Part shown: one piece after another, positions 16,935-53,250 of the stretch | Numbering within the stretch: the first letter of the stretch is position 1 | Layout: the number at the start of each line of letters is the position of its first letter | Assembly (NCBI GenBank): GCA_036785375.1 | Contig: JAWMAR010000203.1 | Span: forward strand, 3,534,001 to 3,598,000 | Reading direction: 5' to 3' | From: Leucoraja ocellata | Lineage: Eukaryota | DNA length: 64,000 bases | The notes under the pieces: model-generated | The model's database searches: none | Told to the model about the DNA's origin: nothing | The model's input: the letters and a program-made list of their open reading frames with translations, nothing else | Position numbers and translations under genes: made by a program

Positions 16935-17385
16935 TCAGAAGATACAAGACACAATTTATTTGTCATTTGGACCCCTTGAGGTCCAAACGAAATGACGTTT
17001 CTGCAGCCATACATTACAAACAAATAGACCCAAGACACAACATATTTTACATAAACATCCATCACATTGCTGTGATGGAAGGCCAAAAAAACTTATCTCT
17101 TCACTGCACTCTCTCCCCCCCCCCCCCCCCCCCCCGATGTCAGAGTGAAAGTCAAAGCCCCCGGCTGGCGATGGCGATTGTCCCGCGGCCATTAAAGCCA
17201 CGCCGGGTGATGGAAGGTCGCACACCGGGTTCTTGATGTTAGAGCCCCCGGCGTGCGCTCGCAGAGTCCCGCAGCCATTCCAAGCCGCGCGGGGTGGTGC
17301 TGTAAGGCCCCGCTCCAGGAGCTCTTCGACCCCGCAACTCGGGCAGGAGAAGTCGCCGTTGCGGGAGCCATGAAAAGCGGTCCCC
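16935..17385 (-). mobile_element. GC-rich short non-LTR element; a second copy in opposite orientation lies at about 59960-60440
   Basis: The two copies share about 400 bp of clear similarity, including the caaatgacaaataaa tail. Confidence 0.75.
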
Positions 17386-19074
17386 AACCAAGGAAACAGA
17401 AATTGAAGAAAATACTAAATTTTCTGTCTGAATTCAGGGCTGCTCTTACAATAAAGTATCACACAAAGATCAGTGAACTTAGGGCACAGTTGAAAACTCC
17501 CAAATGTGTAGTTAATCAAGCCTTAAAGAGAAAGCAATACCAAATAGATTTAACGGACAGAAAGATTCAGGCACTCAAAACCAAATTACGTGGGAAAACG
17601 TTTGCACGAGAGCTTGCTGAAACCAAGGCAGAGCTTTTGAGATTTAAAAAAGCACACAGACAATTGCTGATGTTTCATGACAGTAAGAAAAAGAGGAAAA
17701 CTGTTTCAATTCACCAGTACAGAAAAGTTCATGAAAATTTAAAGGACATGGAAGAGGATGTGAGACGCCTCGAATTTGACAATCTTGTCCACAAAGAAAC
17801 AATCAAAACTCTGCAGGCTGCCAGTATTGTCAAGTCAAAGGTGGACCAGAAAACTTACTCCTCAACAACAAGCATGCATGTGTTTGACTGTATTGTAAAC
17901 AAAACTCCCACAGCAAACATTTCAATCATAATAAGCCAGTTCTACAAGCGGAGTGGACTTAATCTGGATCATGTTCCTCGACGCAGTGCAGTTGAAGTTA
18001 TGGCCCGAGAATTGGGAGCTATTGCTGAGTTGCAAACAGCAGAGATGCTCCTTGCAACAAAGGGTTTGACTGTGGGTTTTGATGCAACCACCCAGGAAGA
18101 GACCCACATTAACAGTGTACACTTCACCACCACAGACAAATGTCTCTCTGCAGCAGTCGATGAATTGGCTGGTGGAACTGCTGAGGACTATGCACAACAT
18201 ATTTGCGAAACAGTTGACAATTTGTGTAAAACTTACACTCATTTCAATGAGCAAGCAGATTTTCAAGATACCAGGCAAAAGATAATCGCTAACATTTCAA
18301 ACACAATGAGTGACAGGTGTGCAGCTAATCATGCTGCTATTAGGATTGTGAGTAGCGAGTGGGGTAAATCTTTGAATGAGCTCTACTGCCACTTGCATTG
18401 TCTTGATTCCATTGCAACATCAGTTCGCTCAGCCCTCAAAATGCAGAGACAATCCGGAGGAAAATTCTTGTTTGGGTAAGACTGTCTAGCAGTAAATGCC
18501 ATACTGAAGATGAGCAAACTTCGGTACAAGAATGGAAAAGGGGACCCAAAAGGATTTGTCGCATTTTTGGATGACAGGAACATCACCCGAGTTGTCCTCC
18601 CACGATACCTTGGCAACAGATTGTACATACTGTTTCATATTAGTGGCAAGCTCATAGAATATTATGATGACTTTGTTGCCCTGCTGAATAGCAGAACATT
18701 CTGTGGGGGGTTGAAAAGCGCCATCCTCCATGACTTCACCCAGGCTGATGCAAAAGTAGAACTTCAGATATTAGACTTACTTGGCAAATATCTGACTGGG
18801 CCTTGGATGAAGCACTTCTACACTTCAAGCCAGAATCAGATCAATCATGTTGATGGCATCAAAGTGGTCAAAGGGGTGATTGCTACTCTAAAGGAAGCCA
18901 CAGATAATCCAGCCAACTTGATATTAGCAAGGGAAGATTTCTTTGGTGAGGAGGTACATCTTGATGCCACATTGACAAAACTTTGGGAGCTACCAGTACA
19001 TCCACAGTTCAGTTCAAAGATGAGGAGCTGTCTTCAAGCTGTCATCACTATGTTGGAGAGGTAGTATAGTAAAT

Positions 19075-32102: not shown

Positions 32103-32151
32103 ATGTCATCGTTTACACAATTCATCTCCACACTCTGCCTCTTTCTCCCAG
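32103..32151 (+). CDS. Exon 1, signal peptide MSSFTQFISTLCLFLP(G)
   Basis: ATG in caaaATG context, hydrophobic core, consensus donor CAG|gtaagt, phase 1 (split leader typical of IgSF genes). Confidence 0.85.
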
Positions 32152-35100
32152 GTAAGTCATTCATGTTCACCCTTGCCAACCTGCTCACGTTGTCTTCCTA
32201 TAACTTGTTTCTTTCTATGGCTTTTGCACTAAAGGTTGTTTTTTTGCCGTATTTTAGAAACTTCTTGTGTAATTTATGTTCAATTTGTTTTTGAATATGT
32301 GTTTGTTTCAGTGTAGGTGCATGTGATGCTGTTGCAAGCAAGATTTTAATTTAGACACAAAAGCAGAAATTGAACATGTAGTTTAAATAAGAATAAAGGG
32401 GAGACCATTTAAGACTGATGTGAGAAACAGCTTTTTCACCCAGAGAGTTGTGAATTTGTGGAATGGTTCCGAACCGAAACGTCACCCGTCATTTTTCTCC
32501 AGAGATGCTGCCTGACCCGCTGAGTTACTCCTGTACCTTGTGACACAAGGAACAGTAGATGCTGGAAATGCAGTTAATGTAAGTTTACATGAGGACATTA
32601 ACGCATAAATGTAAGAGACACAAGAAGTGCAGATGCTGGAATCTTGAACAAAACACAGTACTGGAGTAACTCAGCGGGTCAGGCAGCATCTCTGGAGAAC
32701 ATGGACAGGTCACGTTTCGCGTCGCCACCTTTCTTCGCATATGTTCTCCAGAGATGCTACTAGCGTCTCTAGCACTTTGTGTCTGTCTTCGATATAGATC
32801 AGCATCTGCAGTTCCTTCCAACACAAGTGGTTACAGGTGAGAGAGGGGGGGGGGGGGGGGGGGGTTAATTGGGCCTGGACCTCACTGTCCTTGTGCCCAT
32901 GATAGTAAACTCGAGTTACTCGGAAGGCGTCGTTAACTATGTTCACTTTCCGTGCCAGGGTCCGCTGTCGGTGTGAGGGTGAACCAGTCTCCTGCTGCTC
33001 TGACACTTCTCCGAGGGCAGACAGCTACGTTCACCTGCTCCCTGCTACCTGGAGAGGGGGAGGTAGTTTCAATGAGGCAATACTGGTTTCGGACGAAAGA
33101 CAACCCGGAGCTCTGGGACAACAAGACCGAGAGTTTTCTGAAGACAGGCGACCGACTGTTCGTGTCTGTGGGCTCGCTGGTCATTCGGGAGGTGACTGTG
33201 CACGATGCAGATACTTACCATTGTGTGGTACTGAATGAAGATATCTGGAAAAAGTTTACAGGAAACGGAACCACATTACATATCCAAGGTAATTAATATA
33301 ATAATAAACAGGAACAGGCCCTTCAGCCCGCAATGTTCGTGCGGCCCATGAGGCCAAGTTAAACAAACATGTGTCTATCCAAAAGTCTCTTAAACTCTAC
33401 GATCGAATCTGCCTCCACAGCCACCCCGAGATCTGATGCGATGGAGTTGGTGAATCACACGAACCCCAAGTTCCCTAAACCGAAACGCCGCCTGTCCATT
33501 CTCTCCATAGATGCGGCCTTAACCGCTGAGTTCCTCCAGCATTTTGTGTTTTGCTTAAGACTGCAGCGCCTGCAGTTCCATGTCTCTACTTCCATTTCAT
33601 TCCTGCATTTCATCTCTCTCTATTAATGCTCATTTTCTGGCACAAACCAGCCCAGTCTGACAAAAGGTCCCGAACTTAAACGTCATATATCCATGATTTC
33701 CAGAGATGCTGCCTGGCCCGCTGAGTTACTCCAGCGCTTTGAGCCTTTCTTTGGTAAAAATAAAACTCGCATCTACAGTTCCTCCTGTCTCCCTAATGAT
33801 ACAAAATAGATAATGAAAACAACATCAACCTCGGTCGTAGTGTTTATATCCCCCAACAGTTCTAGTGCTGGCATTTAATTCTCCTGATTTCCTTACAAGG
33901 AGGGAGTGTGGAAACAAAAGCATCTTTGTTTCTCTCAGTTTTCTCTAGATTCCCTCTTGACATGACCGGCTGAAGTCGTCAAGTTGGGAAAAGGGGAAGT
34001 ACAACGGGATCTGGGGGTCCTTGTTCATCAGTCTATGAAAGTAAGCATGCGGGTACAGCAGGCAATGAAGAAATCGAATGGCATGTTGGCCTTTATAACA
34101 CGAGGAATCGAATATAGGAGCAAAAGGGTATTTCTGCAGTTGTACAGAGTCCTAGTGAGACCACACATGGAGTATTGTGTGCAGTTTTGGTCCCCTAATT
34201 TGAGGAAGGACATTCTTGCTATTGAGGGAGTGCATCGTAGGTTTACAAGGTTAATTCCCGGGATGGCGGGACTGTCATATGCTGAGAGAATGGAGCAGCT
34301 GGGCTTGTACACTCTGGAGTTTAGAAGGATGAGAGGGTATCTTATTGAAACATATAAGATTATTAAGGGCTTGGGCACGCTAAAGGCAGGAAACATGTTC
34401 CCGATGTTGTGGGAGTCCAGAACCAGGGGCCACAGTTTAAGAATAAGGAGTAAGCCATTTAGAACGGAGACGCGGAAACACTTTTTTCTCACAGAGTGTG
34501 GTGAGTCTGTGGAATTCTCTGCCTCAGAGGGCGGTGGAGGCAGGTTCTCTGGAAGCTTTCAAGAGAGAGCTATGTAAAGCTCTTAAAAATAACGGAGTCA
34601 GGGGATATGGGGAGAAGGCAGGAACGGGGTACTGATTGGGGATGATCAGCCATGATCACAATGAATGGCAGTGCTGGCTCGAAGGGCCAAATGGCCTACT
34701 CCTGCATCTGTTGTCTATTGTCTATTGATTCTTGTCTTTGTCAAGTTCGGTTTAACATTTGCTTCCGGGCTCCAGGGGAGTATAATAATGCCCCTGAAAC
34801 AATTCCCGGCTGCGATAACCAAATGTGCGGCAGATGCATCATGTATATGTGTGAAAATGAACACAACTAAATATAAGCGATAGAATCAAGGAGGGCAGCA
34901 GTGAGAGAGGGCAGACTCAAAGTGATGGAGTAACAGCGGGTCAGGCAGCATCTCTGGACATCATGGATAGGTGACGTTTAGGGTCAGGAACCTTCGTCAG
35001 CCTGGGTTGGTTTGCGCCTCAACGTGCACATTAATAGAGAGAGATAAAATGCAGGAAGGGAAATAAATAGAAGTGGAGACGGGGAACTGCAGGCGCTGGA

Positions 35101-38100
35101 GTCTTAAGCAAAACACAAAGTAACGGGGAACTCGGCGGATAAGGCAGCATTCGTGGAGGTTTGGTGTTGGGGAACTTGGGACGTGTGTGAGGTCCCCAGC
35201 CCACTGTATCAGCGGACAGTGGGAATGGTCGCACACATCCCTAACGCTTCATTGAAGGGAGGCAGCTACAATGCAAACGTGTGGCCGCTCTCCCATCGCC
35301 CACGGGCTGGCGAGAGGGAGCCCGACCCGACCAGACTCTGCTAAATAATTCTGGCAACGTGAATCCATCTTCTGGCCAATCTGGGCCCGGACAGTACAGG
35401 ATGTAAAAGAAAAGAAAGAAAATGCTGGAGCTACTCATCGGGTCGGTCCGTGTGTGTGTGGGGGAGAATTTACCGATTCACATTGAAGGCTTCCAGTCGA
35501 AACCCTGATCCTGAGACACAAGGAACCGGAGGGGCTGGTTAAAACAAAGACGCAAAGTGCTGGAGGAACTCATCGGGTCAGGCAGCATCTCTGGAGAACA
35601 TGGACCGTCATTCTCTTCCCACGAATCAGGCTTGTACGGCTGAATATTTATATGGTACACAAAAAAATGCTGGAGAAACTCAGCGGGTGCAGACAGGGTT
35701 TCGGCGCGAAACGTCGCCTATTTCCTTCGCTCCATAGATGCTGCTGCACCCGCTGAGTTTCTCCAGCTTTTTTTTTGTGTACCTTCGATCTTCCAGCATC
35801 TGCAGTTCCTTCTTGAATATTTATATGTTCTGTTTTAGATGTCCATCATCGGCTTGGATTTAGTTTACCGTCTACATATTCACTTCCATTTCATGCATCA
35901 AAATACACAAAGTGCTGGAGGAACTCGGTGGGTCCGGCAGCATCTGAATGGACAGGCGACGATTCAGACCGAAGAAGGGTCCCGACCCGAAACACCGCCT
36001 GTCCATTCCCCCCGCAGATGTACCTGGCTCGATGAGTTCCTCCAGCACTTTGTGTTGGACAATGGACAATAGGTGCAGGAGTGGGCCATTTGGCCCTTCG
36101 AGCTAGCACCGCCATTCACTGTGATCATGGCTGATCATCCACAATTAGTATCCCGTTCCTGCCTTCTCCCCATATCCATGGACTCCGCTATCTTTAAGAG
36201 CTCTATAACTCTTGAACGCATCCAGAGAATTGGCCTCCACTGCCGAGGCAGAGAATTCCACAGATCCGCAACTCTCTAGTTGAAATGTTTTTCCTCATCT
36301 CCATTCTAAATGGCTTTCTTAAAAAAAAAATTCCAGCATCTCCAGTTCCTTGTGTCTCCAATTCCATTTCATTCGCTTCCTGTATTTTTCTTTCTTATTG
36401 TGCATTTTGAGACACAGACTGAAGAGATGTAGTCTGTAGATGTAACCCGACCCGAAACATCACATATCATCCATGAAGAGTTACTCCAGCACGTTGTGTC
36501 TCGTCAGCTATCCATGTTCTCCAGAGATGCCGACTGACCCTCTGAGTTACTCCAGTACTTGTGCCTTTCTTTGGTATAAACCAGCGTTTGCAGCTCCTCT
36601 TTATTCCGCTAATAATCCATTGAATAACTTGGTTGCTCCTTAAGCAGGTGCACGGCGTGCCGTGTTATCATAGTTGCTCCATGCATGACTGAGAGCGACA
36701 GGAAGATTCACAGCGTGTTATTTTCCTACTTTACGCAGCGAAGCCTGACATCTCCCTGACCCTGGATCCCGGGATAGAAGGCGCAGAGACGCGGAGCCTG
36801 ACTTGTGTGGCCTCCGGATTCTTCCCGAGGGAGCTGAACATGTCCTGGGCTGTCGTGGGCCAGTTGTCCTATGAAACAGAAGCGGGGCCGCTGAGGGAGA
36901 ATGAGGATGGAAGCTTCAACGTGAGCTCCCGGCTGCGGCTCACCGGCCCTCGGCTAGAGGCGGGCATGGTCGTCACCTGCCTGGTTCAGCACCTCACGGG
37001 GAAGGGCTCGGTGAGCGAACGTTTCCCTCCCATCCCGAGTAAGTGGCTTGAATGAACGTGGCAGCCAGCGTCCTCCAGTTACTGAAGATACACAGAGTGC
37101 TGGAGTAACTCAGCGGCTCAGTTACTGCCGAGTTACTCCAACATTTTGTGTCTATCTGCGCTGTAAACTAGCATCTGCAGTTCCTTCCTACACATGTCCA
37201 AGGTTGCAAGGTTTAATAGTACATGTGTACACATTTGTTAAACGTAGCCACAATGAACTGCAGATTCTTGATTACAAAAAATACACAAAGTGTTGAAGTA
37301 ACTCAGCAGCGTCTAGTAGCATCTCTGGAGAACGTTGAACGTAATTCATAAACCTGATCAAAAGTTTATGAGATCACTCAATGTGTACAATATCAACTGC
37401 AAATATGGATTTAGACTTTCAGACTTTAGAGATACGCGGGAAAAGGCATTTCGGCCGATCAGCGATCACCTCATACACTGGCTAGACAAACACACGCTGG
37501 AGGAACTCAGCAGGTGAGGCAGCATCTATGTAGAGAAGGATATGCGACGTTTCGGGTCGAGACCTTTCTTCTTAAACACATCATACATTAACACTATCCT
37601 GCGCATTGGGGACAATTTACAATTTTACCGAAGCCAATTAACATACAAACTCGTACGTCTTTGGAGTGTGGGAGGAACCCGGAGAACCCGGAAAAAAATC
37701 CACGCAGGTCACGGGAAGAACGTACAGACTCCGCACATCCAACACCCGTAGTCAGGATTGAACCCGCGTCTACTGCGCTGTAAGGCAGCAACTCAAGTAC
37801 AGTTCATCTGTGCATCGATATATATATATATACATATTTGAGTTGCTGCCTTATATATTATATAATTATTATATGTATATATACATCGATGATATCAGCT
37901 CAAGATATGTATATATATATGTGTGTATATGTGTATATATATATCTATATATATATATACACACACACATTTATATATATATCTTTCTTCATTATTATTT
38001 GAACCATTTACCGTTACAATACGGCGTAAGTGCTTTATCATATAAATATATTATATACATCTTGACCAGATAAAGCACTTACGCCGTATTTAAACTGTAA

Positions 38101-41100
38101 ATGTCTCAAATAGTAATGAAAGTTGAAGAAAGATGTATAAAAATGATACTCGAGAAACTGCAGATGCTGGAACCTTGAGCTGGAGGAACTCAGCATCTGT
38201 GGAGGGAATGGACATGAGTCGTTTCGAGTCGGGACCCTTAGCTCACAATGCTGCCTGACCCACTGAGTTCCACCAGCACTTTGTGTTTTGTTCAAGATTC
38301 CAGCATCTGCGGTTCCTTATGTCTGCAAATTTCATATTGTTTAATTAATTTAATTTATTCTGCGTTCATCGACGCACAGATGTGATCTCGACATAAAGGG
38401 TTTAGGTAAATATATAAACTATAAACAAACGCAGCGGGTCAAGCAGCATCTGTGGAGGGGATGAACAGACGACGTTTCAGACTGACGAAGGTTCCCGATC
38501 CAAACATCGTCTGTCCTTTCCCTCCACAGATGCTGCCTGACCCGCTGAGTACCTCCAACACATTGTGTTTTGCTCAAGATTCCAGCATCTGCAGTTCCTT
38601 GTATCTCCATAAACTATACACAATACTTAATTATTACCACTTCAATTTCACTCCCGGTGCCCCACCGGTTATAGTGCTGCTGTTAAATCAACTTGGTTTC
38701 CTTACAAGGACAGTGGAATATGGTGGAACGGTGGGAAAATTGCTGGAGTAACTCAGCGGGTCAGGCAGCATCTCTGGAGAACATGGATAGATGATGTTTC
38801 TGGGTCAGGACCCTTCTTCAGACTGAATATTATATATGTATACGACTCGTATGAAGGCAGCGTTGTGATGTTGCTGGAGTTTCTAATGATACAAAGACAG
38901 ATAGAAACATTGATTGTGAATAGAATATATGAACAATAAAATAGATGTGAAGTCTAGCATAATGTGGGGGGGAAAAGGCAAAATTGTATATTTTGATGAG
39001 AAAACAAACACGTTTTGCTGTATCTCAGTCCATGTAACAATAAACTAAACTAAATTAAAACAAAAAAGTTATAAATATTGACACAGGTTTTGACCTGAAT
39101 CGTTGAATCTGATTTTCTCTTCACAAATGCCGCATGATCTTATGAGCTTTTAAAGTTTTTATTGAGGGTGGTGTGAGCTGGATCATGCTGCCAGGGGTGG
39201 TGGGGGAGGCAGATGTGATTTGTGGTGTTAGAGGTTAGAGGTTTTGATAGGCACATGGATTTGCAGGGAATGGAGGGATATGGATGATATGCAAACAGAG
39301 ATTAGTTTAACTTGGCATCATGTTCTTCATGGACATTGTGGGCTGAAGGACCTGTTCCTGTATTGGTATATGTTCTACTTTAGAGTAGTTTACTTGTTTT
39401 CATTGGTCTATCTGGTATAAACCAGCATCAGCATTTCTTTCCTACATTCTCTATCTATCTATCTGTCTGAAAAAGGGTTGCGACCCGAAACGTCACCTAC
39501 AGTATTTCTTTTCTTTAGAGATGCTGACTGAACCGCTGAGTTACTACAGCAATTTGTGTCTATCTTCCACTATTGCCACTTTTCCCCCAGGAATATCACC
39601 CTGGAAAAGATTCCCCTGCAACTACAAGAGATGCAACACCTGTCCCTATACCATCTCCCTCGACTCCGTCCCGGGATCCTGGTAGTCCTTTCAGGTTAGG
39701 CAGAGATTCACTTGCATCTCCTCCAACCTCACCTACTGTATCCGTTGTTCAAGATGTGGACTCTTATATATCGGCGAGACCAAATGTAGACTGGGCCATC
39801 ATTTCGCTGAACACCTTCTCTCAGTCCGCCTGGCCCTACCTGATCTCCCAGTTGCTAAACACATTTAATTCTCCTTCTCATTCCCGCCCTAACCTTTCTG
39901 TTCTAGGCCTCCTCCATTATCAAAGTGAGGTTAAATGAAAATTGGAGGAATGGCCCTATTTATTCTCGGTGACGGAAACATTTCAACTGGGTGAGACGTT
40001 TTGCACATGGGTTAAGCTTTTATACACTAACCCAACAGCTAGCATAATGACAAATCAAATGTTATCAACAAAATTATATTTATCTAAAGGTTTCAGACAA
40101 GGATGCCCGTTATCTCCATTATTATTCGCCCTTGCTATTGAACCACTAGCAGAAAGTGTTCGAGCACATCCAGTAATATATGGGTATAATACTAAAAATA
40201 CAGTTAATAAACTCTCTCTATATGCAGACGATGTATTACTATATATTACAAATCCAGAAACCAGCATTCCAAACTTGTTAAATCTTATAACTCAATTTGG
40301 TTTATTTTCGGGATATAGAATTAATTGGAATAAAAGTGAGATTATGCCAAGTTATACATATTGCAACAATCACCTTTCAGAATAGTAAAGGAAAAATGTA
40401 AATACCTAGGAATTTATGTGACCATGAATGATACTTCTTTATTTAAATCAAATTTCATGCCTTTACTTAATAAATTGCATAAGAATATTCAATATTGGAA
40501 AACACTTCTCATTTCAATGCTCGGTTCAATTAACGCTATAAATATAATTTTCCTTCCGCAATTGCTATACCTTTTTCAATCAATTCCTATATATCTCCCA
40601 AAATATTTCTTTTAAAAAGTTGACTCTATAGTGACAAATTTTATTTGGAATCATAAGAACCATAGAATAAGCAAAAAACACTTATGCAAATCCAAGGCCA
40701 AAGGAGGATTGGTTTTACCAAATGTTTTATTTTACTTTTGGGCAGTCAATGTAAAAAATATGAATTTTTGGTTGGAAGATATGGATCAACAACCAGACTG
40801 GTTAAAGATGGAAAAGGAAGACTGTTTGCCTTTTGAAATTGGTCTGATTCTGTTAGCTCCCACAAAATTGAATTAAAAAATCTATAGTGAAAACCCTATA
40901 ATATATAGTGGTATTCGAATTTGGAAATAACTAAAAAAGACATTAAAATTGGATAATTTATCACTTTCTCTCCCCATTGCAAATAATCCCTCATTTAAAC
41001 CCTCAGTGTTGGATAAAGGGTTTGTACAATGGAAAAATCATGGAATTAAAAAGATGGGACATCTTTATAGAAATTGTATTTTGCTCTTGTTTCAGGAGTT

Positions 41101-44100
41101 ACAACAGAATTACGGATTACATTCAAATAAATCTTTTAGATATTTACAACTTAAAGATTATGTTAAATCACATACACGAGAATACAGAACCAGAGAGCCA
41201 GAGATTCTAGATGAATGTTTGAATAAACACCCTAACACAGTCAAATTAATATCTCACATTTATAATACTTTTATAGACAGTGAGAATCTGTCGACGGAAT
41301 TATACAGACCAGCATGGGAAAAGGAATTAGCTCAACCTATACCGAAAGATATTTGGGACGAAAGCCTACAACATATACACCAATGTTCGTTAAATGCCAT
41401 ACATTCTTTAATACAATTTAAAGCACTACATAGACTGCATTATTCTAAAACAAATTTAAATAGAATGTTTCCTAATATCTCTCCTATCTGTGATAAATGT
41501 CAATCCCACGTGGCTAATTCAACCCATGCTTTTGTAATCTGTAGTAAAATTAAAAATTACTGGATGGATATTTTTAAAATAATCTCTGTAGTTGTCAATA
41601 CCCAAATCGATCCCGGTCCTAAATTAATAATATTGGGCATATCAGAACAATACCTAAACCTCAGAATAAACCAAAGAGATTTCCTTGATTACAGTATAAT
41701 AATTGGGAAAAAATTGATATTAAAATTTTGGAAAAACCCAACAACCCCCACAATCAAGATGTGGATTATGGAGATGTCAGAGACCTTACATTTGGAAAAA
41801 ATTAGATTTGTCTTAATTGACAAACCAGAATTATTCACTAGAATATGGTCTCCATTTATAGATTATTTGAAGGGGTAGATGCGGAGTGCTAGTGCGGAGG
41901 CCGGACTGAAGCGTGAACCCAGGACTAGATGAATAGTTATGTTCTCTGGCCCCAAGTTGTATTATTAATAGTTTATCCTATTTTTCTAATTTCCTTCTTT
42001 CTTTCTTTATTTTCCCATCTATAAATATAAATAAATAATTAGAGGCAATGTTAACATGTAACCGATAAAGGAGGATCCCAGCTACTTTGGTAACTGGCTC
42101 CCTGGAAACCTGGATATTTAATATGTAACCGTTAAACAAAGTCTGTACTGGTTTGGATTATGATATGCAGATGCCTCTAATAAAAATGTATTTAAAAAAA
42201 AAAGGAAATTGGAGGAACAACATCTCATATTTCGCTTGGGCAGCTTACAACCCAGGGGTATGAATATTGATTTCTCTAACTCCAAGTAACCCTTGAAGTT
42301 AGAGAAACCCTCTCTCTCTCCATCCCTCCCCATCCAAGTCACAACAGCTTTTTGTTCTCACCTAGCTACAGCTAACAATGACCTGTTTCCTTTATCATCA
42401 ATACTGTTTTGCATATCTTTCATTCAGTTGTTCTATATCTCTCGACATCATTGTCGATATCTTTTGTTTCCCTTCCCCTTGACTTTCAGTCTGAAGAAGT
42501 GTCTCGACCCAAAACATCACCCATTCCTTCTCTCCACAGATGCTCCCAGTCCCACTGAGTTACTGCAGCATTTTGTGTCTATCTTCGATTTGAACCAGCA
42601 TCTGCAGTTCCTTCCTATGAAATTCTGCTCATCTCTCTATCATCTATTTTTTCCCCTGTTCTCACGATCGGTCCTTGACCTGTTTCTTTAACTTTGTTTC
42701 TCTTTCCACATTTGCTGCCTGGTCTGCTGCATAGTTCCAGCATTTTCTTTCTTTTCTTTAACTTTTTTTTAAAAGCTTCTCATTGTAAATTGGTTACAAT
42801 GTAGTGCTTTATTATTATATGGCAGAATTACAAGTCACAGTTTATGCTCTGTGATTTGGGAGATCTTGGTTTCATAGTAAATGATTTACTGAAGCCAGTA
42901 GGCAGATATAGCAAATCAATGTGAAAGCTGTATAGTGGAAATGTCAAGGACTAGAGGACATAGCTTCAAGGTGAGAGAGGCAAAGTTTAAAGGAGATGTA
43001 CGGGACAAGTTGTTTTACACAGAGGGTGGTGAGTGCCTGGAACATGTTGCTAGTAGTGGTGGTGGAGGCTGATATGATAGTGGCATTTAAGAGGTGTTTA
43101 GAAAGGCATACGGATATGCAGGGAATGGAGGGATATGATTCACGTGCAGGCAGAGAAGATTGGTTTAACTTGGCTCCATGTTCGTCACAGACATTGCAGG
43201 CTGAAGGGCCTGTACTATGTTCTAAACTCTATGAGGTTGGCAGATTCTGTACACAACACATTCCAAGACAGACCATTACATAAAGGATTCACAGTTGATT
43301 TTGCATAATGATTTCTTCTTGTTGTTTGGTTTATAAGGGGCAAAGTTTAACGAAGATGTGCAGGGGGTGAGTTTTTGTACACAGGGTGGTGGGTTCCTGG
43401 AATGCACTGCCAGGGGTGGTAGTGGAGGCAGATATGATAGCGGTGTTTAAGAGGCTTTTAGGAAGCAGTTATGCAGCTGATTTTGCAAAGAACCCTAGTG
43501 GTTTGTGAAATGTTTCACTTCTCATAAACAGATCGGTAATTAACAATACTTATCGAGTCCACACCCAAGGTTAGAAGTTGTTCAGCCACAGACATACATT
43601 GATGTCTGTCTTGCGCTTGTTGTGCTTCCTGTGCGTGATGGTGGGAGATTGGTGGAAACAGGGCCGTGACGTGAACGCTCTTTCCTTGACCCCATTTACA
43701 ACACGTTATCTTGCGGTCATTTACAGTACAAGGAACCAATCTTTACCCCAGTAACAGTAAATTTAGTGAATAGTAAGAATGTTAATCTATGAATAGAATA
43801 ATGTAGGTTTTCTCCTATGAAAGGCCTGACTTATTTCTTTAAGGATAGATATTTGTAGAACTAGAATATTAAGCCAAATAACCAAACGGACGCAACGCCG
43901 AAAAGCCAAATAACCGAACATGATGTCGCCGGGGGGCAGGACTTGTCAGTGATTGGTCCAGACCCCCGTGTCCATTACATCACTGGCCGGTGGAGACGGG
44001 AGGGTGGGGGTCATTTTCCCACACCGGGGCTGGAGGGTCACTGGGCATTGTGAACCCGAGCACCAAGGTGTAAGGGGGCGAAGGAGCGCATCCCTCAGGG

Positions 44101-47100
44101 CAGCCCCCACCCTCCCCCCCAGGGTCGGCAGCACACACATACATGGGGCCGGGTGGAGCAGAGTTGGGGACAGTCTGGTCCCTCCGCCCACCCAGATTCA
44201 CTGACCGCAATGCACCACCACCAGACCCCGACACCCACACCGTGGTGATTCACCCTCCCCGAACCCTGGACCCGACCCACACACGGGGTAATTCACACCA
44301 CCGACACCCACACCGGGTGATTCACCCCCACCCCCACTCCCGGCCATGGGGACAGACGGCCTGGGGCGCTGGCAGTCAAAGTAAATCGCTTTTAAAACAT
44401 GGTGGGGGGGCCACAAATTCCGTGGCGGGCCAATGACAAGTGTGCATGACAATGAACAATTTTATCTCCTCCCACACCTCCCCTATTGACAACAATAAGC
44501 ACGTTTTAATTATTTATACACAGTAATACCGCCTGGTTGCCTGCGTAACGCACACACACCGGGTTGACTGCAATCATTGAAACAGGGCAGACCACGTGAA
44601 AGTTGCAATCTTCCAACCCATGCGTAACGCACAAAACACTAGATAATCTTATTTTTTCAGTTTATTTGCATTTCATGTGTTTTTTTGAACTTTGCGCATT
44701 TAACAGTGTCATTTTCACAGCGGTGTCGAGTGCATCGTACTTTTTCCCCCCGCAGATGATACATTACTCTCACAACACATAACTTACCTCTATTACCCCT
44801 GTACATAAAAACAAAATGACAATGCCCCTTCAAGGTCTACTAATCCACCCATAGCTTCAGTTGCAGGTACAGCTGAAGGGATTTGGCGCTCGGAACAATG
44901 ACTGCATTAGAAGATCATCTGAGCATCTTGAAATCAATCTCATGAGCACGAGTGAAAGATAGCCGAGCGATGCGGTATCGATCTGCCCACATCACACACA
45001 GTGGAAAAGAATGAAATGGAAATTGCAAATTATTCACCCTCATGAGATTGATTTCAAGATGCTCAGATGAACTTCTAATGCGCTCATTTATGTAGAGGGG
45101 TAATAGAGGTGAGGTATGTGATTCGAGAGTAATGTATCATCTGCGGGGGGGGGAAGAAAAGTACGATGTACTCAACACCGCTGTGAAAATGGCTGTTAAA
45201 TGCGCAAAGTTCATAAACACAAATGAACTGCAAATAAACTGAAAATAATCTGGTGTTTTGTGCGTGGGAGCTTGTTGTGTGCATTACGCAGGCAACCAGA
45301 TGGTATTACTGTGTTTAAACAATAAATAAAATGTGCTTCTTGTTGTCAAGGGAAAGGGGGAGGGGGGTAGTGGGAGGAGATAAAATTGGTCGGTGTGGGT
45401 GGGGTGGTGGGGGGTGAATCACCCTGGTCTGGGGGTCGAGGTCTGGTGGCGGGGCATCGTGGTCAGTGACTCTGGGTGGGCAGAGGGACCAGACTGTCCC
45501 CAACTCTGCTGCAGCTGACGGGCCGGGGATGTTGCCAAGTTTTTCTCCCCGTGTGTCCGCGGTCCCGTTTCACCCGGGCCCGTGTGTGCGTGCGCTGCCG
45601 ACCCACAGCCTGTCACAATGTGGCCGCACGGGGCAGACGAGACGGTGGGCGGCCGTGGCCGGACAGCACTGACCCGGGGGGGGGGGGGGGGGGGAGTTGG
45701 GTCTGTCTCGAGGGATGCGCTCCTTCGGCTGCTTACACTTTGGTGCTCGTGTTCCAAACGCCCAGTCACCCCCTTGCTCCGGGCGATCTTATGTGAGGAA
45801 AATGACCCCCACTCTCCCGTCTCCCCCAGCCAGTGATGTGATGGACGCGGGGGTCTGGACCAATCGCTGACAAGTCCCGCCCATTATTTTTCACTGTTGA
45901 GTCCGTTCAGTGAGTTGGCTTTTCAGCAATGCGCCCTTTCGGTTATTTGGTTTTTAGTGTCCCGCCGTTTTGGTTATTCGGCTTTTCGGCGTTGCGTCCG
46001 TTCGATTAGTTGGCTTTTCGGCGTTGCGTCCATTTGGTTATTTGGCTTTTCGGCATCGTTTCCGTTGGGTGGGAAAGTGTGATAACATAGAATTGGTTTG
46101 AGCAGGTGAGCGATGGCCAGTGTGGACTCGGTGGGCAGAAGCACCAGGTTCCATTCTGTTTCTTTAAACAAAATGAAACTAAACTAAATACATGTTTAAT
46201 GTTGTATGTAACAGTGCATTTATATTAACGTAACATGCATTAGTCATGATTATATTTGCTATTCATTGGAGCATTGTTTTGATTCACATTTCAATTGTGA
46301 TTTTCAAGGATCCTCCGAGTATTATTTCATTCTACTGAGTCTGATCCTAATAGTACCAATATGCGTCTGGATTGTGTATAATTACCACAGTAAATTGAAG
46401 AAAGGAAAAGGTAATGTATACATTGTACATCTTATTTTGTAATTTAACTAACAACTGAGCATATAAAAGTGAATATTGTATTTAGTTCCCGGTGAGAGTA
46501 AAATAATTTAAACAAAATGAAGGTGACACAGTGTTGCAGTTTGTAGAGCTGTTGCCTCACAGCGGGTTCAATCCTGACTGGGCGCTGACCATGTGGAGTT
46601 TGCACGTTCTCCCTGTGACCTCATGGGTTTTTTCAGAATGCTCCGGTTTCCTCTCATGTTTGGGTTTATAGGTTAATTGGCCTCTGTAAATTGCCCCTAG
46701 TGTGTAGGGAGTGGATGAGAAAGTGGGATAACATAAAACTAGCGTGATCGATGGGCGGCATAGACTCGGAGGGCTGAATGGCCTGTTTCTGTCCTGTACC
46801 TCTGAAGTACACTAAATCTTCATGATATTTTTATAGAATCATCTGTCCATGACGCAACTGTTGATATTCAAAGCATGAGAAAACAAAAAAACTCAGTAAA
46901 TGAGGTGAGTAATTTAGTTTGATATTTACCCTTATGTTGCATGCACGATGTTCTAATGTACACTGAGGTATTGTCAGCTTATATGAACAAATTCATCAGC
47001 ACTATTGGATGTAATGGACTAAGAACACAAGCCATTCTGCGGCACGTTGGCACAGTGGTAGAGTTGCTGCCTTGCAGCACCAGAGACCCAGGTTTGATCC

Positions 47101-50100: not shown

Positions 50101-52420
50101 CTGGATGGAGGGTTGTTTGGGGGGGGGGGGGGGGGTGGGTTGAAGTCAAAAGGCACTGCCTGCAAATGGTTGCTTGTCTAAACTTGACAACTTCCTGTTT
50201 GCACTATATTGATTTTAGATAAAACGCGACCACTTACGGCTGTGATTTTGAAATGGTATGAAACTGCATTTGAATATGGTGTCGTTGCACCCTGCATGAA
50301 ATGGTATGAAACTACATTTGAAATTGGTGACCTTGCACCCTGCTTGAAGTGGTAGGAAACTGAACCTGTATTTGGTGGCCTTGCACCCTGCTTGATGGGC
50401 AAATTAATGGAAATGATACTTAGACATAATATATATAAGCATCTGGATAAACAGGGTCTGATTAGGAACAGTCAACATGGATTTGTGCCTGGAAGGTCAT
50501 GTTTGACTAATCTTCTTGAATTTTTTGAAGAGGTTACTAGGGAAATTGACGAGGGTAAAGCAGTGGATGTTGTCTATATGGACTTTAGTAAGGCCTTTGA
50601 CAAGGTTCCTCATGCAAGGTTGGTTAAGAAGGTTAAACTGTTGGGTATAAATGCAGGAATAGCAAGATGGATTCAACAGTGTCTGAATGGGAGAAGCCAG
50701 AGGGTAATGGTGGATGGCTGTTTGTCGGGTTGGAGGCAGGTGACTAGTGGGGTGCCTCAGGGATCTGTGTTGGGTCCTTTGTTGTTTGTCATGTACATCA
50801 ATGATCTGGATGAAGGGGTGGTAAATTGGATTAGTAAGTATGCAGATGATACCAAGATAGGGGGTGTTGTGGATAATGAAGAGGATTTCCAAAGTCTACA
50901 GAGTGATTTAGGCCATTTGGAAAAATGGGCTGAAAGATGGCAGATGGAGTTTAATGCGGATAAATGTGAGCTGCTACACCTTGGCAGGACAAATCAAAAT
51001 AGGACGTACATGGTAAATGGTAGGGAATTGAAGAATACAGTTGAACAGAGGGATCTGGGAATAACCGTGCATAGTTCCTTGAAGGTGGAATCTCATATAG
51101 ATAGGGTGGTAAAGAAAGCTTTTGGTATGCTAGCCTTTATAAATCAGAGCATTGAATATAGAAGCTGGGATGTAATGTTAAAAATGCACAAGGCATTGGT
51201 GAGACCAAATCTGGAGTATGGTGCCCAATTATAGGAAGGATGTCAACAAAATAGAGAGAGTACAGAGGAGATTTACTAGAATGTTGCCTGGGTTTCAACA
51301 ACTAAGTTACAGAGGTAGGTTGAATAAGTTAGGTCTTTATTCTCTGGAGCGCAGAAGGTTAAGGGGGGACTTGATAGAGGTCTTTAAAATGATGAGAGGG
51401 ATAGACAGAGTTGATGTGGACAAGCTTTTCCCTTTGAGAATAGGGAAGATTCAAACAAGAGGACATGACTTCAGAATTAAGGGACAGAAGTTTAAGGGTA
51501 ACATGAGGGGGAACTTCTTTACTCAGAGAGTGGTAGTGGTGTGGAATGAGCTTCCAGTGGAAGTGGTGGCGGCAGGTTCATTGGTATCATTTAAAAATAA
51601 ATTGGATAGGCATATGGATGAGAAGAGAATGGAGGGTTATGGTATGAGTGCAGGCAGGTGGGACTAAGGGAAAAAAAGTTGTTTGGCACGGACTTGTAGG
51701 GCCGAGATGGCCTGTTTCCCTGCTGTAATTGTTATATGGTTATATGGTTTGAAGTGGTATGAAACTGCACTTGAATTGTGTTGCCTTGCACCCTGCTCGA
51801 AGAGGTATTAAACTGCACTTGAATTTGGTGGCCTTGCACTCTGCTTGAAATGGAATTTCAAGGAATAGCCACTTAGTCTAGTTGAGAAATAGAAGGCATA
51901 TGTTTAATGTGAGAGGGAAAAACCTGAGGGGCAACTTTATCAATCAGAGGGTGGTGGGTATATGGAACGAGCCACCTGTGGAGGTAGTTGAGGCAGGGAA
52001 TATAACACCATTTAAAATATATTTGGACAGGTGCGTGGACGGGAGCGTGGACGGGAGCGTGGACGGGTGCATGGACGGGTGCATGGACAGGAAAGGTTTA
52101 CAGGGACGAGAGCCAACCACGGGCAAATGGGACAAGCTTAGATGGGGCATCTTAGTTGGCGTAGACCAGTTGGGCCGATGGGTCTGTTTCCATGCTGTAT
52201 AACTCTATGATATGAATATAACACAACTATTTACAAGTGAGCCTTATTGTTACTTGTTATTTTTCTGTTACAGGATAATGTTTCAATAAACAATGAAAAT
52301 CTGCATTATGCGCCTGTTTATTTCAACAAGCGACAGCGAAGACAGGAATTGAGGTGGACCGAGCAATCCCAAGAAACAGAATATGCCATCTTAAAGGTCA
52401 AAGATAACAATAATTTATGA
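32103..52420 (+). CDS. Six-exon non-rearranging VJ-C1 Ig-superfamily inhibitory receptor (NKp30/SIRP/PRARP-VJC1-like), 331 aa; join(32103..32151,32959..33288,36739..37038,46309..46410,46837..46904,52274..52420)
   Basis: All five introns are GT-AG with matching phases (1,1,1,1,0). The spliced CDS is 996 nt, open from ATG to TGA. Domain order is leader, V, C1, TM, cytoplasmic with ITIM and ITSM. Confidence 0.88.
32959..33288 (+). CDS. Exon 2, germline-joined VJ-type Ig V domain
   Basis: Acceptor ttcactttccgtgccag. Translation VRVNQSP..FTC..YWFR..SLVIREV..DADTYHC..FTGNGTTLHIQ has the B-strand Cys, C-strand Trp, DxxxYxC and a J-like GxG motif. Donor AAG|gtaatt. Confidence 0.95.
33984..34725 (+). 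mobile_element. CR1 3' fragment in intron 2
   Basis: QRDLGVLV..MEYCVQFWSP..SRTRGHSL with a (tctattg)n tail. Confidence 0.9.
36739..37038 (+). CDS. Exon 3, C1-set Ig constant domain
   Basis: Acceptor ttttcctactttacgcag. Translation KPDISL..LTCVASGFFPRELNMSW..NEDGSFNVSSRL..VTCLVQH has the C1 signatures CxxxGFxP, W, NxDGSF and CxVxH. Donor gtaagt, phase 1. Confidence 0.95.
37815..38060. repeat. (TA)n-rich microsatellite / AT-rich tract
   Basis: Interrupted (TA)n and (CA)n runs. Confidence 0.85.
39570..42620 (+). mobile_element. Penelope-like element (GIY-YIG endonuclease end plus terminal repeat), split by an L1
   Basis: FTCISSNLTYCIRCSRCGLLYIGETKCRLGHHFAEHL. It resumes after the L1 as LEEQHLIFRLGSLQPRGMNIDF. 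Confidence 0.85.
39951..42205 (+). mobile_element. L1-clade LINE, 5'-truncated
   Basis: RQGCPLSPLLF, LYADD, SGYRINWNKSE, CDKC..H..C, polyA tail. 12-bp TSD aaattggaggaa at 39939-39950 and 42206-42217. Confidence 0.93.
43871..46070. mobile_element. About 2.2-kb imperfect foldback (palindromic) DNA element in intron 3
   Basis: Arms match as reverse complements from the terminal (aagccaaataaccgaa)n arrays, through tggtccagaccccc, to the centre near 44900-45085. Confidence 0.85.
46309..46410 (+). CDS. Exon 4, transmembrane segment
   Basis: Acceptor gattttcaag. Translation SSEYYFILLSLILIVPICVWIVYNYHSKLKKGK is a 20-aa hydrophobic stretch followed by a basic stop-transfer. Donor AAG|gtaatg, phase 1-1. 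Confidence 0.85.
46525..48200. mobile_element. Three HE1-like SINEs (46525-46810 plus; 47040-47300 plus; 47895-48200 minus)
   Basis: tRNA-like head, ttctccctgtgacc core and CR1-like tail. Confidence 0.75.
46837..46904 (+). CDS. Exon 5, cytoplasmic linker
   Basis: Acceptor atatttttatag, translation (E)SSVHDATVDIQSMRKQKNSVNE, donor GAG|gtgagt. It supplies the phase 1 to 0 switch needed to reach exon 6. Confidence 0.8.
48784..48815 (+). ncRNA. Minimal hammerhead ribozyme-like motif in a Penelope-derived repeat (representative of many copies)
   Basis: gt-CTGAAGA-a-gggtc-cc-gaccc-(g>a)AAAcgtc-ac. Other copies keep GAAA, so the family consensus has an intact core. Confidence 0.65.
49891..51881 (+). 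mobile_element. Non-autonomous Helitron with an internal minisatellite of about 48 bp
   Basis: 5' A|TCTATATATTACTAAAA and 3' CTAG|T with no TSD. The flanks rejoin as a CR1 fragment (gggaa|ttgagaaatagaagg). Confidence 0.8.
50396..51748 (+). mobile_element. Young CR1 LINE (RT plus 3' UTR) nested in the Helitron
   Basis: 280-aa ORF with QHGF, DFSKAFD, GVPQGS and YADD, (ttatatgg)n tail, ttga duplicated at both ends. Confidence 0.95.
52274..52420 (+). CDS. Exon 6, cytoplasmic tail with ITIM and ITSM
   Basis: Strong acceptor ttttttctgttacag. Translation DNVSINNENLHYAPVYFNKRQRRQELRWTEQSQETEYAILKVKDNNNL*. AATAAA at 52440-52445. Confidence 0.88.
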   Translation, partial: DNVSINNENLHYAPVYFNKRQRRQELRWTEQSQETEYAILKVKDNNNL

Positions 52421-53250
52421 AGAGCCCATAACCCAGAGTAATAAATTGTCCCTCTTCAACGAGACCACAAACTGATAATTATCATAAAACCACACACTCT
52501 TCTCGCAAACAATATACGTAGAATATAAGAAACAGAAACTAAAGGCTGTAGCACAGCTTGTGAAATTTAATTCTCTATTCAATTACTTTCCTTGAGCTCA
52601 AAACCAATTGATCTGACTCGACCTTGATCGCCTTCTCAGAGTTCCAAATGTTTAGCATTATTATTGCCGTGTGTAGTGAGGTACAGTGAAAAGCTTTGTT
52701 TTGCATGCTATCCAATCAAATCAGATATTACTATACATACACCAGTAAATACAATTAAGTCAAGTACAAGAGGTAGAGCAAAGGGGAAGATACAGAGTGC
52801 AGAATATAGTTCTCAGCATTGTAGCACATCAGTCCAATGTCCGCAATGGGGTAGAGGTGAATCGGACAGTACCCTAGCTTATGAAAGGACCGTTCGGAAG
52901 CCTGATAACGGAGGGGAAGAAGCTGTTCCTGAATCTGTTGGTGTGCATTTTCAAGCTTCTGTACCTTCTGCCTGGGGAGCAGGGAGAAAAAGGAATGCCG
53001 GGGTGGGGCAAGTCTTTGATTATGCTGGCTGCCAAACCGATGAGCCGCACATCTCTACTTTCAGAAGAAGGGTTCCGACCCAAAACATCACCTTTTTGTT
53101 GTTCCAGAGACCCGCTGAGTTACTCCAGCACTTTGTATCTATCTAGAGCAGGGTCACACTGAAGATGGGTCTTGCCCTAAAACATCACCCGTCCATGTCC
53201 TCCAGAGATGTCGCTTTGATAATATCAGGCATTTTGTGTGCCTGACAAAA

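Follow-up and report, generated by a model that had tools for sequence, protein, structure and literature searches.

A conserved pair of tyrosine motifs in a predicted VJ-C1 receptor of Leucoraja ocellata and its likely place in a paired family

Does a pair of tyrosine motifs with the order and spacing of PD-1 identify a PD-1-like checkpoint receptor in a cartilaginous fish? The question is raised by a stretch of 64,000 nucleotides from Leucoraja ocellata (assembly GCA_036785375.1, contig JAWMAR010000203.1, positions 3,534,001 to 3,598,000 of the forward strand), referred to as the window. At 52301-52393 of its + strand, a first-pass annotation had noted an ITIM (immunoreceptor tyrosine-based inhibitory motif), LHYAPV, followed by TEYAIL, which it took for a motif of the ITSM type (immunoreceptor tyrosine-based switch motif), and had proposed a checkpoint-like receptor that uses tandem-SH2 phosphatases. 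The pair quite probably belongs to the predicted last exon of a non-rearranging shark and ray receptor that consists of a joined variable (VJ) domain and a C1 domain. This receptor is likely the inhibitory member of a paired family, whose ITIM-less sisters with an Arg in the transmembrane (TM) segment are predicted to be activating. The anatomy of the gene, the conservation of both tyrosines, the two sequence types and the mixed ectodomain halves are shown by the sequences.

The predicted receptor and its tail

Six exons with GT-AG introns in phases 1, 1, 1, 1 and 0 give an open frame of 331 amino acids. The splice model is a prediction, consistent with database models of relatives, and the gene it describes appears intact, with a leader, a joined VJ domain, a C1 domain, an uncharged TM segment and a cytoplasmic tail. 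Its parts are as follows.

32103..32151, + strand: exon 1, predicted leader (ATG at 32103) with a phase-1 donor; the leader exon is common to all six copies in the assembly
32959..33288, + strand: exon 2, V-set domain with a joined J-like end, FTGNGTTLHI (Pfam V-set, 1.1e-8; structure model at a predicted local distance difference test (pLDDT) of 84.8)
36739..37038, + strand: exon 3, C1-set domain (Pfam C1-set, 4.6e-13)
46309..46410, + strand: exon 4, TM exon, whose uncharged helix spans roughly 46320-46379 and whose codon 46332-46334 encodes Leu here, but Arg in four sister copies
46837..46904, + strand: exon 5, cytoplasmic spacer with a phase-0 donor, in agreement with the sawfish orthologue
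52274..52420, + strand: coding part of exon 6, cytoplasmic tail up to the TGA stop, which aligns to orthologue tails with one 3-residue gap
52301..52318, + strand: ITIM LHYAPV, Tyr codon 52307-52309, Ala at position +1 from the phosphotyrosine (pY+1); the same Tyr codon is TAG in four Arg-type copies
52376..52393, + strand: second motif TEYAIL (TxYxxL, ITSM-like, not a strict ITSM), Tyr codon 52382-52384
52416..52518, + strand: out-of-frame remains of a longer ancestral tail behind the present stop, with a candidate poly(A) signal, AATAAA, at 52440

No heptamer or nonamer resembling a recombination signal sequence (RSS) lies within about 110 bases of either end of the V exon. Exon 3 is assigned to the C1 set because 13 residues separate its B-strand Cys from its C-strand Trp, a hallmark of that set (PMC2785349). 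The best hydrophobic 19-mers of the TM segment (residues 231-250) hold no charged residue, as the first-pass annotation had stated, and a Glu directly precedes them. Exon 6 has a good acceptor at 52273/52274 and joins the upstream model in phase. Two public runs taken as RNA list no joint at the junctions of exons 4, 5 and 6 and leave the bin of the TM exon uncovered, which is uninformative on expression. A fold search with the V domain returned generic V-set matches (top Z 13.4, a VNAR), among which PD-1 (Z 11.8, root-mean-square deviation 2.1, 95 residues aligned) and BTLA (11.5) tie with many unrelated Ig domains. SIRP is absent among the best 50 matches listed, and the search is uninformative.

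Both motifs stand where they were reported, with Tyr codons starting at 52307 and 52382, 25 residues apart. The pairing of an ITIM with TxYxx(V/I/L) exceeds chance, since it occurs only once across all six frames of the window and only 49 of 100,000 shuffled tails yield one, six of these at a spacing of 25. The ITIM label holds for the first motif, but the ITSM label does not hold for the second: the strict consensus is TxYxx(V/I) (PMC12151841), TEYAIL has Leu at +3, and a search with the strict pattern finds no pair. A further Tyr, four residues past that of the ITIM, forms a YxN site, YFN (52319-52327); two stingray relatives share the Tyr and lack the Asn.

Searches with the V exon and a catshark protein recovered a shark and ray family under automatic names such as 'SIRP beta-1-like' and 'SHPS-1-like'. 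Conservation was counted over ten elasmobranch species, with one full-tail record each; isoforms and partial records (P0001, P0004, P0083, P0084, P0085, P0086, P0087) and the Arg-type P0003 and P0088 were left out. Both tyrosines are kept in all ten, a check that the first-pass annotation had called for, and also in a frog relative. All ten likewise have Ala directly after the first Tyr (pY+1) and, following the second Tyr, Leu at +3; Thr at -2 of the second Tyr is kept in 7/10, and the first motif matches the ITIM consensus in 9/10. Shark members carry further distal tyrosine motifs past these two, the remains of which lie out of frame behind the stop in the window. The alignment of the frog protein (P0040) spans V, C1, TM and both motifs, at 28% identity and with a motif spacing of 27; on this basis the family may reach tetrapods. 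In stingray and manta records P0076 and P0079, the C1 domain is duplicated (V-C1-C1), so that the SIRP-alpha layout is reached inside the family.

Two receptor types in six copies

The assembly contains six copies of the receptor, four on contig C203, one on C1820 and one on C2713. Copies B (the window gene) and C form the ITIM type, with Leu in an uncharged TM segment and both motifs. Copies A, D, E and F form the Arg type, in which a CTA-to-CGA change replaces Leu with Arg close to the helix's outer end and the ITIM Tyr codon is TAG; they also share a change from Cys to Trp in the helix and a new Tyr, in INYENL. Arg-type frames are open in A (294 amino acids), D (294) and F (296), with GT donors, and the acceptor and phase of exon 6 are intact in all six copies. 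The Arg codon (site 46332-46334) and the Trp codon also occur in contigs of public runs X1 and X4, which bear different organism labels; X1 may stem from the source sample. Between the two types, the 3' halves show about 8-13% mismatches. As in paired receptors, near-identical ectodomains are thus joined to opposite signalling ends, an ITIM tail in one type and a basic TM residue with a short tail in the other. Downstream of the stop and an insertion, the ancestral distal tail survives in a single frame in Arg-type copies (L136:2712-2828, L139:6314-6430, L147:2603-2719), including a third ITIM-like motif that ITIM-type copies lost by frameshift.

The two halves of the gene differ in how the copies group. 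Over the informative sites with all six copies aligned, the split of B and C from A, D, E and F is seen at 253/330 sites from the TM region on versus 18/283 upstream. It is found at 38/43 sites in the TM region, 6/7 in the exon 5 region and 15/18 in the exon 6 region, and at 0/33 around the V exon and 0/21 around the C1 exon. The change falls in intron 3:

42000..46000, no strand: approximate boundary, with copies mixed upstream and split by type downstream (type-specific sites 4/238 before 42 kb, 253/330 from 46 kb)

Because the sites are linked, the very small Fisher P for this split overstates the case; the boundary is plain nonetheless. Between copies, V differs by 3-10 amino-acid changing and 2-4 silent substitutions, several of them in the FG loop. 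A close parallel is Siglec-5/Siglec-14, where 5' ligand-binding exons are homogenised by conversion while the signalling ends stay distinct, and partial 5' conversion has been described for SIGLEC5/14 (PMC4042635). Those proteins have a sialic-acid-binding V-C2 ectodomain, in contrast to the VJ-C1 build of the window family, for which another adaptor is predicted.

Arg-TM, short-tailed relatives are also present in sawfish (P0003) and stingray (P0088). The ectodomain of P0003 is almost identical to that of the inhibitory P0002. The sawfish and stingray forms have a different TM segment, which suggests that their Arg type had a separate origin. With these queries, this segment was found neither in the assembly nor in 1.26 Mb of window and further DNA, where a control TM query matched all six copies.

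Taken together, the sequence features would make the window gene an inhibitory receptor and the Arg type an activating one, both seeing similar ligands. Binding of a ligand by the V domain would cluster the receptor, and a kinase would phosphorylate both tail tyrosines. The SH2 domains of SHP-1 and/or SHP-2 could then dock on them and dephosphorylate activating pathways. Recruitment of SHP-1 is predicted because of the Ala at ITIM pY+1, a residue that promotes it (PMC8631942). The sister type would have arisen from an inhibitory gene through the Leu-to-Arg change in the TM segment and the stop at the ITIM tyrosine; in an FcR-gamma or CD3-zeta dimer, the Asp would be the partner of its Arg, near the outer helix end. 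Both types would keep binding similar ligands through recurrent conversion or unequal crossover in the 5' half, and a microbial or self ligand acting on the brake would thereby set off the activating partner as well. The assembly contains a TM exon of the zeta/FcR-gamma family that includes the Asp; its likeness suggests that it is FcR-gamma. A CD3-zeta-like TM exon (L033:1490-1610, - strand, contig C175) carries a 1-base frameshift and is a pseudogene or reflects an assembly indel. An N-terminal TM Arg is known to select FcR-gamma (PMC1440944).

PD-1 likeness and competing explanations

It is hardly credible that the gene is PD-1 or a derivative of it, with the PD-1-type spacing selected for SHP-2. 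The order, ITIM before the TEYA-motif, and the spacing of 25 are real in the window gene, as first reported, but they do not stand as a conserved PD-1 feature, since the spacing is 28 in 10/10 orthologues. The window tail aligns to theirs with a single 3-residue gap. On both grounds the PD-1-like spacing is a lineage-specific accident, due to a 3-codon deletion in this lineage, and its match with PD-1 a coincidence. PD-1 consists of one IgV domain plus a Ser/Thr stalk, with no C domain (PMC12151841), whereas the window gene has a C1 domain in place of the stalk. LHYAPVY and TEYAILK in the window also mismatch the PD-1 tail consensus, (I/V)(D/E)YG(E/V)L(D/E)F and (T/V)EYATIx(F/Y), from which cartilaginous-fish PD-1 itself departs (PMC12151841). 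Other genes, with other linked markers, have already been assigned as chondrichthyan PD-1 (in catshark and thorny skate); PD-1 linkage markers include PCYT1A, DYNLT2B, NGEF, SNED1, BOK and related genes (PMC12151841). The neighbours found here, WARS2, B7-like genes, CBLB and an ALCAM-like gene, are none of them PD-1 markers in a heuristic screen of about 1 Mb of the 4.4 Mb contig, in which PD-1 markers were not searched singly. Four shark relatives (P0005, P0080, P0081, P0086) do have an N-x-S site right before the F-strand Asp, a PD-1 feature, while the V domain of the window lacks this N116-type site. Cartilaginous-fish PD-1, like the window family, has Ala at ITIM pY+1 (PMC12151841). PD-1 identity is thus largely refuted, and of the checkpoint proposal the inhibitory reading remains likely, given the conserved Tyr pair and the uncharged TM segment, without the kinship to PD-1. 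PD-1 and BTLA resemble the window gene in their tandem tail of ITIM plus ITSM-like motif, and BTLA shares the ITIM with pY+1 Ala (PMC8631942). They differ in having a single Ig domain and no C1, while the window family has a C1, an ancestral spacing of 28 and a second motif that ends in Leu.

Several observations weigh against the paired-family reading, or against the data beneath it. The pY+1 Ala does not set this family apart from shark PD-1, and the orthologue records are database gene models. INYENL in the Arg type fits both a broad ITIM pattern and a YxN pattern, so these copies may not be purely activating. In C1 of copy E there is a 1-base insertion, which may be genuine or may come from an error in the assembly. 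The cluster mirrors itself about a centre near 3.77 Mb that falls exactly on a 200-N gap, and 200-N gaps also bound a second mirror; B/C and A/D may therefore be haplotypes. In a diploid, the actual copies could come down to a minimum of one ITIM locus and two Arg loci. The two types are unlikely to be alleles of each other, because their 3' halves differ by 8-13% and they stand in tandem on each arm. It is unlikely that the window gene acts as an inhibitory receptor by itself and that the Arg-type copies are duplicates in decay which share the stop and the TM change by chance. Speaking for this account, a premature stop usually marks a pseudogene, copy E is frameshifted, and the four Arg-type sequences have one origin, so that the changes happened once. 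The stop, however, falls exactly on the ITIM Tyr and the Arg near the outer helix end, and despite the divergence of the 3' halves, frames are still open and splice donors present in three of the four Arg-type copies. Conversion with no selection could account for open ectodomain exons; it could not account for an open TM exon and exon 5. Arg-TM short-tailed partners recur in sawfish and stingray. There is even less probability that exon 6 is rarely used and that the main product stops after exon 5 or skips the TM exon, leaving mainly a non-signalling or soluble decoy. Database isoforms that lack the last exon (P0001, P0004; sawfish and stingray) speak for such a product and also against the paired-family reading, and others lack the TM exon (P0083, P0084). 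Yet sharks and rays conserve exon 6 and both tyrosines, whereas the linker that separates the tyrosines has drifted, and the acceptor and phase of the exon have survived in every copy.

Related receptors and the genomic neighbourhood

As the likely inhibitory member of a paired family, the window gene appears to work like SIRP and to be built like PRARP (putative remnant of an antigen receptor precursor), with placement in either group a candidate only. SIRP resembles it in a V-set plus C1-set ectodomain, an ITIM tail on the inhibitory form and paired forms (SIRP-alpha inhibitory, SIRP-beta activating). The window gene has both the V-set followed by C1-set domain(s) that define SIRP (PMC2785349) and an ITIM tail. 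SIRP-alpha is the best non-antibody match of the family profile after UrIg2 (1.4e-33), a score that largely reflects the shared V-C1 build, and SIRP clusters come out on top in an Atlas feature search. Catshark P0005 shares 23% identity with a turtle SIRP-like protein, which forms a long branch of unsure place in an ectodomain tree whose deep branches are open. The window family differs from SIRP in its single C1 (P0076 and P0079 excepted) and in its flanking genes, WARS2 and CBLB. SIRP-beta uses a central Lys and DAP12, in contrast to the outer Arg of the activating form here. NSFL1C is a SIRP neighbour; no SEP-domain exon of the NSFL1C type was found on this contig, and such exons lie on other contigs.

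PRARP shares the joined VJ exon without RSS and is listed among joined-VJ genes (PMC11599192). The window gene has a joined VJ without RSS, a C1 and two tyrosine motifs. PRARP is reportedly a V-C1 protein with two ITIM/ITSM-like motifs, and is not known to have paired Arg-type forms. None of the records recovered with the V exon and the catshark protein carries the name PRARP. Frog P0040 may be a link between PRARP and the window family. The two appear set apart by location: PRARP is placed in the major histocompatibility complex (MHC) (PMC10751288), while no MHC gene was seen in the roughly 1 Mb screened around this locus. UrIg/UrIg2 and shark NKp30 share the single-exon VJ. NKp30 has no C1. 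UrIg2, the top PDB match for both the C1 exon and the family profile, has nine C1 domains and lies in the antigen-receptor complex (PMC12227049). No description of this elasmobranch family was found in the literature; most subscription papers and all supplements fell outside the scope, and the supplements of PMC12151841 and PMC11599192 may list related genes.

Activating KIR and Ly49 offer a close likeness for the switch itself, a basic TM residue gained together with a stop in the membrane-proximal ITIM, as documented for the birth of activating KIR (PMC2213150). They have an unrelated ectodomain and a Lys for DAP12, whereas the Arg of this cartilaginous-fish family lies near the outer end (FcR-gamma type). 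The stronger result, beyond the motif pair, is a likely switch of the KIR kind from inhibition to activation, with homogenised ectodomains, in a VJ-C1 family that has been little described in cartilaginous fish. Recurrent birth of activating from inhibitory receptors is documented for mammalian KIR and Ly49. If the reading is true, a cartilaginous-fish case that shares both mutations and the 5' homogenisation would bring the oldest group with adaptive immunity under this rule, and the two types would form a clean two-gene test system. Ideas on how antigen receptors and SIRP originated give the VJ-C1 build a central role, and in the records seen the family carries only automatic names. A PD-1 'mimic' alone would be ordinary, as ITIM pairs of such kind are common.

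On C203, a WARS2 (mitochondrial TrpRS) exon lies at 3.22 Mb (8e-22) and a CBL-B C-terminal exon at 4.259 Mb (3e-4), in a neighbour screen that scanned 20 of 788 candidate exons against Pfam. Past the CBL-B exon lies a weak ALCAM-like gene (E 0.055), presumably so by the likeness of its TM segment. In human, these neighbours are located at 1p12 and 3q13. Between 3.25 and 4.25 Mb, C203 holds nested mirror duplications with centres or ends on 200-N gaps, a possible haplotype duplication in the scaffold.

Interleaved with the receptors is a B7/butyrophilin-like V-C gene (best PDB match B7-H4, 1.8e-10). Its five close copies all lie in this cluster or on C1820:

L050:7852-8190, + strand: B7-like copy
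L057:8630-8968, - strand: B7-like copy
L036:4831-5169, - strand: B7-like copy
C203, 3,986,562: B7-like copy
C1820, 95,025: B7-like copy

The V domain of this gene is missing the F-strand Cys; an additional Cys pair follows the B strand. Four of these copies lie upstream of a receptor copy of the same orientation, at a distance of 20-57 kb; for the receptor copy in the window, no such gene was found directly upstream. The B7-like gene as a ligand of the receptor is a lead only. A wider and rather doubtful proposal is that the VJ-C1 family at the WARS2-CBLB locus is old and made activating partners at least twice in rays and skates, through a separate Arg TM segment in sawfish and stingray and a point mutation here, and that its ligand is the B7-like gene, which lies upstream of four of the six copies at 20-57 kb, giving a linked receptor-ligand cassette with KIR-like turnover in the oldest group of jawed vertebrates. 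A search for the CD47 family gave no matches anywhere, its controls included.

Another joined-VJ V exon, 29% identical to that of the receptor, occurs in two near-identical copies, L007 (contig C436) and L008 (C228), and presumably resembles CD28H/NKp30-type domains. Most other open reading frames of the window are long transposon-like frames and fragments of long interspersed nuclear element (LINE) reverse transcriptase, at 17211-19064, 262-2000, 33966-34577, 39939-41878, 50356-51667 and many more positions.

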